NCBI RefSeq assembly: GCF_056712565.1
Contig: NZ_CM160072.1
Length of the DNA stretch: 64,000 nt
Reading direction: 5' to 3' (one strand)
Positions 54,219-54,305 of this stretch are shown here, piece after piece. A program made the position numbers. Numbering within the stretch: position 1 is the first letter of the stretch; every line of letters starts with the position of its first letter.

Positions 54219-54305
54219 TTATCTTTTAGGCGTTCAATTTAAGTAGCCCAAAGCGGGCTGCTTACTGGAAGCGCCCGCCTGGTGACTAAAACTCCGAAGG
54301 GATTA

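Follow-up and report, generated by a model that had tools for sequence, protein, structure and literature searches.

The TAA codon that ends rpsG, the gene of ribosomal protein S7, at codon 157 in the window (the whole 64,000-nt stretch of DNA analysed) is, with a probability of about 0.97, an ordinary, ancestral termination site. On the sequence comparisons presented here, the 156-aa S7 is the ancestral and majority form, and the 179-aa S7 of Escherichia coli K-12 is a derived product of stop loss. The K-12 rpsG stop loss and the resulting S7 extension have already been published, and the feature as such is known. The features of the region are listed in Table 1.

Table 1. Features of the rpsG region, with positions in the window
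Feature	Position	Strand	Description
fusA (EF-G) CDS, downstream gene of the str operon	52092..54206	(−)	0 amino-acid differences from MG1655
fusA Shine–Dalgarno core GAGG	54213..54216	(−)	6 nt upstream of the ATG (54204–54206); read from the sequence
rpsG–fusA intercistronic spacer, 96 nt	54207..54302	(−)	Identical in MG1655, C600, O157 and REL606
Latent in-frame extension, 22 codons and TGA (54234–54236)	54234..54302	(−)	Untranslated here; translated only in MG1655/W3110-type K-12
Conserved spacer hairpin CAGGCGGGCGCUU-CCAGU-AAGC-A-GCCCGC-U-UUG	54249..54281	(−)	13 consensus pairs, one bulged A, one unpaired U
rpsG stop TAA, codon 157, context UAA-U	54303..54305	(−)	Middle base 54304: A on the coding strand here, T in K-12 MG1655
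rpsG CDS (ribosomal protein uS7)	54303..54773	(−)	156 codons and TAA stop; ORF, TIGR01029 match, 100% DNA identity to rpsG-annotated records (WP_001138043.1)
rpsL (S12) CDS, upstream gene of the str operon	54870..55244	(−)	Located via the MG1655 annotation; 1 synonymous difference

A single open reading frame was found at the locus. It encodes a 156-aa S7 ending in KAFAHYRW, and the closing triplet reads tta on the plus strand, i.e., TAA on the coding strand. The open reading frame and the strand reading agree with the sequence-only reading, in which rpsG had been seen to stop at TAA, codon 157, after AHYRW. Translation of positions 54207–54773 (−) beyond this stop gives 22 codons followed by a TGA located 27 nt before fusA, and the peptide obtained is exactly the one quoted in that reading. 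The uS7 model TIGR01029 of NCBIfam (rpsG_bact) matches the protein with a score of 236.7 bits (cutoff 135.85), residues 3–156 corresponding to model positions 1–154 of 154. The family model stops at residue 156 in both alleles, and the K-12 extension lies outside the family.

The comparison with the rpsG 3′ ends of K-12 and E. coli B, proposed from the sequence alone, was carried out for several strains. In MG1655 (NC_000913.3), rpsG occupies positions 3473542–3474081 (540 nt) and encodes a 179-aa S7 (NP_417800.1). Codon 157 in this genome is TTA (Leu), owing to an A-to-T substitution at one position, rpsG nt 470; the change from TAA to TTA adds 23 residues to S7, as far as the UGA. Between the rpsG start and the fusA ATG (570 nt), this substitution is the only difference between the window and MG1655, whereas E. 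coli B REL606 is the same as the window at 570 of 570 positions. When the window, MG1655, C600 and an O157:H7 strain are aligned over 151 nt, one column varies, with TAA in the window and O157 and TTA in both K-12 strains. The 701 nt around rpsG are the same in the window and in O157:H7 PV15-279, the product being WP_001138043.1, a 156-aa protein common to REL606, the O157 strain and NCM3722. The latter, a K-12 strain (NZ_CP011495.1), has rpsG at 49950–50420, encoding 156 aa and ending CGT TGG TAA TCC.

With respect to the wild-type or B-type S7 of REL606, O157:H7 and NCM3722, the window thus shares both the TAA and the identical 156-aa product, with no difference at the locus, although the flanking regions set the window in another phylogroup than B or O157. 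With respect to the S7 of K-12 MG1655, W3110 and EMG2, there is no difference in residues 1–156, operon context or spacer DNA; however, the K-12 protein ends at a UGA 27 nt before fusA, and that of the window at a UAA 96 nt before it. Having A and not T at rpsG nt 470, the window is outside the class of K-12 long S7 alleles. The sequence-only reading held that K-12 reads through this position to make a longer S7. The longer protein was confirmed for MG1655, but it is encoded by a sense codon in the DNA and involves no readthrough. The finding named in advance as speaking against this claim, TAA at this codon in the reference K-12 sequence, does not occur, as MG1655 has TTA; TAA is present in another K-12 strain, NCM3722.

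The annotation of the K-12 allele differs between records. In a C600 derivative (NZ_CP181477.1, 578–1045), PGAP gives the K-12-type rpsG pseudogene status (“incomplete; missing C-terminus”), with its end at Trp156. The curated MG1655 record contains a 179-aa CDS, while the automatic annotation of C600 treats the K-12 allele as defective.

The distribution of the two alleles was determined by exact matching of 61-mers, with the SNP in the middle, to every complete E. coli genome in RefSeq (n = 5,425). The 61-mer of the window, with TAA, was found in 5,062 genomes (~93%) and the K-12 61-mer, with TTA, in 348; the remaining 15 genomes contained neither in exact form. The presence of the same base in 5,062 genomes rules out a sequencing error at 54304. 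Among the 348 TTA genomes, the 60 that were named all look like K-12 laboratory derivatives and include MG1655 variants, C600, DH5alpha, DH1, J53, HMS174, RR1 and NEB 5-alpha.

Other species were scanned using one genome per species and the conserved rpsG 3′ end, with the middle base of codon 157 left free. At least 120 loci were obtained, from taxa including Escherichia whittamii, Salmonella enterica subsp. arizonae, Citrobacter, Klebsiella, Kluyvera and Pantoea, as well as Photorhabdus, Xenorhabdus, Morganella, Vibrio and some Lactobacillaceae. Among the 120 matches listed, codon 157 is TAA in 118 and TGA in 2, and a sense codon occurs in none of these other-species loci. Past the stop, E. 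coli, E. whittamii and some Citrobacter have 22 open codons in frame. In other genera, the downstream frame is interrupted by stops and by indels whose length is not a multiple of three, and the spacers are 80–99 nt long. Since the frame is broken in this way, the extension is not an ancestral coding region. The exact 21-nt rpsG 3′ end (TTCGCACACTACCGTTGGTAA) was also found in contigs whose labels name Lactobacillaceae, Oscillospiraceae, Lentisphaerae or further distant taxa, which could reflect either extreme codon-level conservation of FAHYRW* or contamination of MAGs.

In order to place the window among E. coli lineages, its flanking regions were compared with those of other strains. The identity to MG1655 over 6 kb is 98.88% (66 mismatches and 1 gap), and that to NCM3722 over 25 kb is 98.06% (459 mismatches and 4 gaps). 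By contrast, the identity is 100% over window positions 10000–58000 (48 kb, 2 × 24 kb) to SF-468, HS13-1, MS15052 and others. S88, ATCC 11775 and MS7163 show full or nearly full (100%) identity in both halves (10000–34000 and 34000–58000), IHE3034 and APEC O18 are among the matches listed for the 34000–58000 half only, and APEC O1, UTI89 and NU14 among those listed for the 10000–34000 half only. The matching strains (SF-468, S88, UTI89, etc.) are phylogroup B2, largely ST95, extraintestinal or avian pathogenic E. coli. Judged by these identities, the window derives from an ST95-type ExPEC background of phylogroup B2 and not from K-12; even for the K-12 lineage in a broad sense, the flanks have 98.06–98.88% identity and not the near-identity (100%) seen with the ST95-type strains. 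The non-K-12 origin claimed by the sequence-only reading therefore holds because of the flanking divergence and not because of the stop codon, which alone is insufficient, as NCM3722 also has TAA. Partial matches to some part of window positions 10000–34000 were present in 343 plasmid records, and the rpsG–fusA junction itself was present in one record labelled as a plasmid.

The rpsG mutation that extends the S7 C-terminus is shared by EMG2, MG1655 and W3110 and, together with changes in rpoD, prfB, rph-1 and ilvG, was fixed in their common ancestor (Browning et al. 2023, PMC9997739). Strain WG1, akin to NCM3722 and LS5218, carries a different set of mutations (Browning et al. 2023, PMC9997739), and NCM3722 and MG1655 differ in RpsG, among other things (Lyons et al. 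2011, PMC3045373). The long S7 allele marks only the EMG2/MG1655/W3110 branch and not K-12 as a whole. The proposal that a “short S7 allele” serves as a strain-lineage marker has to be restated accordingly: its polarity was inverted, and what remains of it is the signal that a strain is not K-12 of the MG1655/W3110/EMG2 type.

The spacer between rpsG and fusA contains a stable hairpin, located ~24 nt downstream of the rpsG stop, that appears in the MFE fold as well as in the centroid fold. For an alignment of spacers from 25 Enterobacterales, RNAalifold predicts a structure of 13 pairs, with compensatory double changes at 5 of these. The aligned sequences are closely related and were picked via a conserved anchor, so that the hairpin is to be taken as a lead and not as a finding. 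The share of hairpin cells that are paired is 97.5%, versus 31–59% with the partners slid by 1–3 columns, and the observed hairpin values were matched by only 0–2 of 500 column shuffles. In Photorhabdus, Xenorhabdus and Pantoea, this position of the spacer is also occupied by a hairpin, but one of quite different sequence. The overall stability of the spacer fold is unexceptional (z of −1.2 to −1.8 for E. coli). The 126-nt fold also contains a second, alternative hairpin, which encloses the stop codon; the 5′ arm of this hairpin is fixed by the search pattern used to find the loci.

No Rfam match to the spacer (54207–54302) was obtained in a scan of positions 50000–58000 at E ≤ 1 with permissive filters, and no description or role of the hairpin was found in the searchable literature. 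An intrinsic (Rho-independent) terminator was considered and rejected: the stem is present, the tail UUUGGGCUACUU has no U-tract, and the consensus scan makes no call. In the MFE and centroid folds of E. coli, the CUUCG that follows the stop (54295–54299) is predicted to pair with the CGAGG of the fusA Shine–Dalgarno region (54213–54217), both on the (−) strand; this pairing, too, is a lead and not a finding. The columns of this pairing are near-invariant, with 0 double changes and with shuffles equal to the observed values. The sequence GAGGAA at the fusA Shine–Dalgarno site is invariant in the 25-species spacer alignment.

Ribosomes translating S7 in the strain of the window would stop at UAA, in the UAAU context, after Trp156 and release a 156-aa uS7. 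The 96-nt spacer with its hairpin would be left untranslated, and EF-G translation would start at its own GAGG and ATG. In K-12 of the MG1655 type, translation would go on across the hairpin of the spacer for 23 codons until the UGA is reached. The ST95-type strain, like nearly all E. coli, has never acquired the K-12 mutation. According to Browning et al. (2023, PMC9997739, citing Schaub & Hayes 2011 and Collier et al. 2002), the Thr246 variant of RF2 in K-12 terminates poorly at UGA, and S7 becomes SsrA-tagged. In wild-type strains such as that of the window, termination of S7 is presumably efficient and the protein lacks the tagging-prone tail.

The opposite polarity, with the 156-aa form as a derived nonsense truncation and the 179-aa S7 of K-12 as the original, owes its appeal to the long form looking standard: MG1655 is the reference genome, and a chain of 178 or 179 aa is present in 351 PDB entries. 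It is refuted by the outgroup states, TAA or TGA at every other-species locus listed, and is further opposed by the TAA in 93% of E. coli and in E. coli B, by the broken extension frame of other genera, by the family model ending at residue 156 and by the TAA kept in NCM3722; we regard it as practically untenable. It is also almost certainly wrong to assign the window to the WG1/NCM3722 sublineage of K-12, which kept the TAA. NCM3722 does carry TGG TAA and the same 156-aa protein, but the mismatches and gaps in 25 kb, the 66 mismatches to MG1655 in 6 kb and the complete identity to ST95-type ExPEC over 48 kb refute this assignment.

A leaky TAA, at which low-level readthrough would yield some functional 179-aa S7 by programmed recoding, is very improbable as well. 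The open 22-codon frame (E. coli, E. whittamii, some Citrobacter) and the conserved hairpin shortly past the stop would be compatible with recoding. However, UAA followed by U is reportedly the most efficient termination signal of E. coli (Poole, Brown & Tate 1995), and the long form of K-12 results from a genomic substitution and not from recoding: in strains with the long form, the codon in the DNA is a sense codon, and no genomic stop is decoded. Nor is the extension conserved as a coding sequence, given the stops and indels in other genera. In many Enterobacteriaceae, in-frame stops or frame-shifting indels occur while the hairpin is kept by compensatory changes, and selection therefore seems to act on the RNA and not on a peptide. 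Ordinary termination at an ancestral TAA is thus the reading retained.

The genes rpsL, rpsG and fusA share the minus strand and are collinear with those of MG1655, rpsG being located between the other two. Apart from rpsG codon 157, the differences from MG1655 in the str operon are all synonymous (6 in tufA, 9 in fusA and 1 in rpsL). The sequence-only reading had held that a non-K-12 origin matters for the reading of other differences; in the str operon, the remaining differences leave the proteins unchanged. Upstream of rpsL, at 55319–55347 (−), there is a near-consensus sigma-70 promoter-like site (TTGACA, 17 nt, TAAAAT; 11 of 12 matches), which lies in the position expected of the str operon promoter.

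The bulk of the local divergence relative to MG1655 falls in tusB, tusC and tusD (55370–56409 (−)), upstream of the str operon, with 42 nucleotide differences and 8 amino-acid replacements, and the gap between tusC and tusB is 1 nt shorter in the window than in MG1655. Between yheO and fkpA, at 57254–57351 (−), there are three overlapping sub-threshold Rfam matches (STnc240, rnk_pseudo and isrK). The STnc240 match scores 32 bits against a gathering score of 55, and the segment extends into the fkpA ORF, overlapping its first ~54 nt (5′ end); it is probably a terminator-like hairpin rather than a member of an Rfam family.

Translation of fusA is coupled to that of rpsG, and S7 represses by binding the RNA of the rpsL–rpsG spacer (PMC10931766, a 2024 review; also PMC3616713). 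The operon of the window is the same as that under autogenous S7 control (rpsL-rpsG-fusA-tufA), with the promoter-like site upstream. The known S7 target is upstream of rpsG, whereas the spacer hairpin is downstream of it. It is conceivable, though unlikely, that this hairpin is an undescribed cis-acting RNA element which sets EF-G output relative to S7. Such an element might affect mRNA processing or stability, cause pausing, or take part in a long-range fold. In the last case, CUUCG would mask the fusA Shine–Dalgarno site until a ribosome terminates at the rpsG UAA, and the modelled CUUCG–CGAGG pairing is a possible basis of rpsG–fusA coupling across 96 nt.

Much of the published work on the str operon was done in E. 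coli K-12. If the coupling experiments used K-12, the rpsG stop was 27 nt from fusA there, versus 96 nt in the wild type. If the hairpin is indeed such an element, the K-12 stop loss would send every S7-translating ribosome through it, and K-12-based accounts of rpsG–fusA coupling and of str-operon stoichiometry would misrepresent wild-type E. coli.

The TAA at rpsG codon 157 will not surprise a specialist and serves to orient the reading of the other differences in the window. As the window represents a natural ST95-type ExPEC background, its other differences from K-12 can be read as ordinary polymorphism between lineages. At rpsG codon 157, it is the reference genome, K-12, that is the mutant, and the stretch that K-12 translates as the tail of S7 is a structured spacer in wild-type strains.
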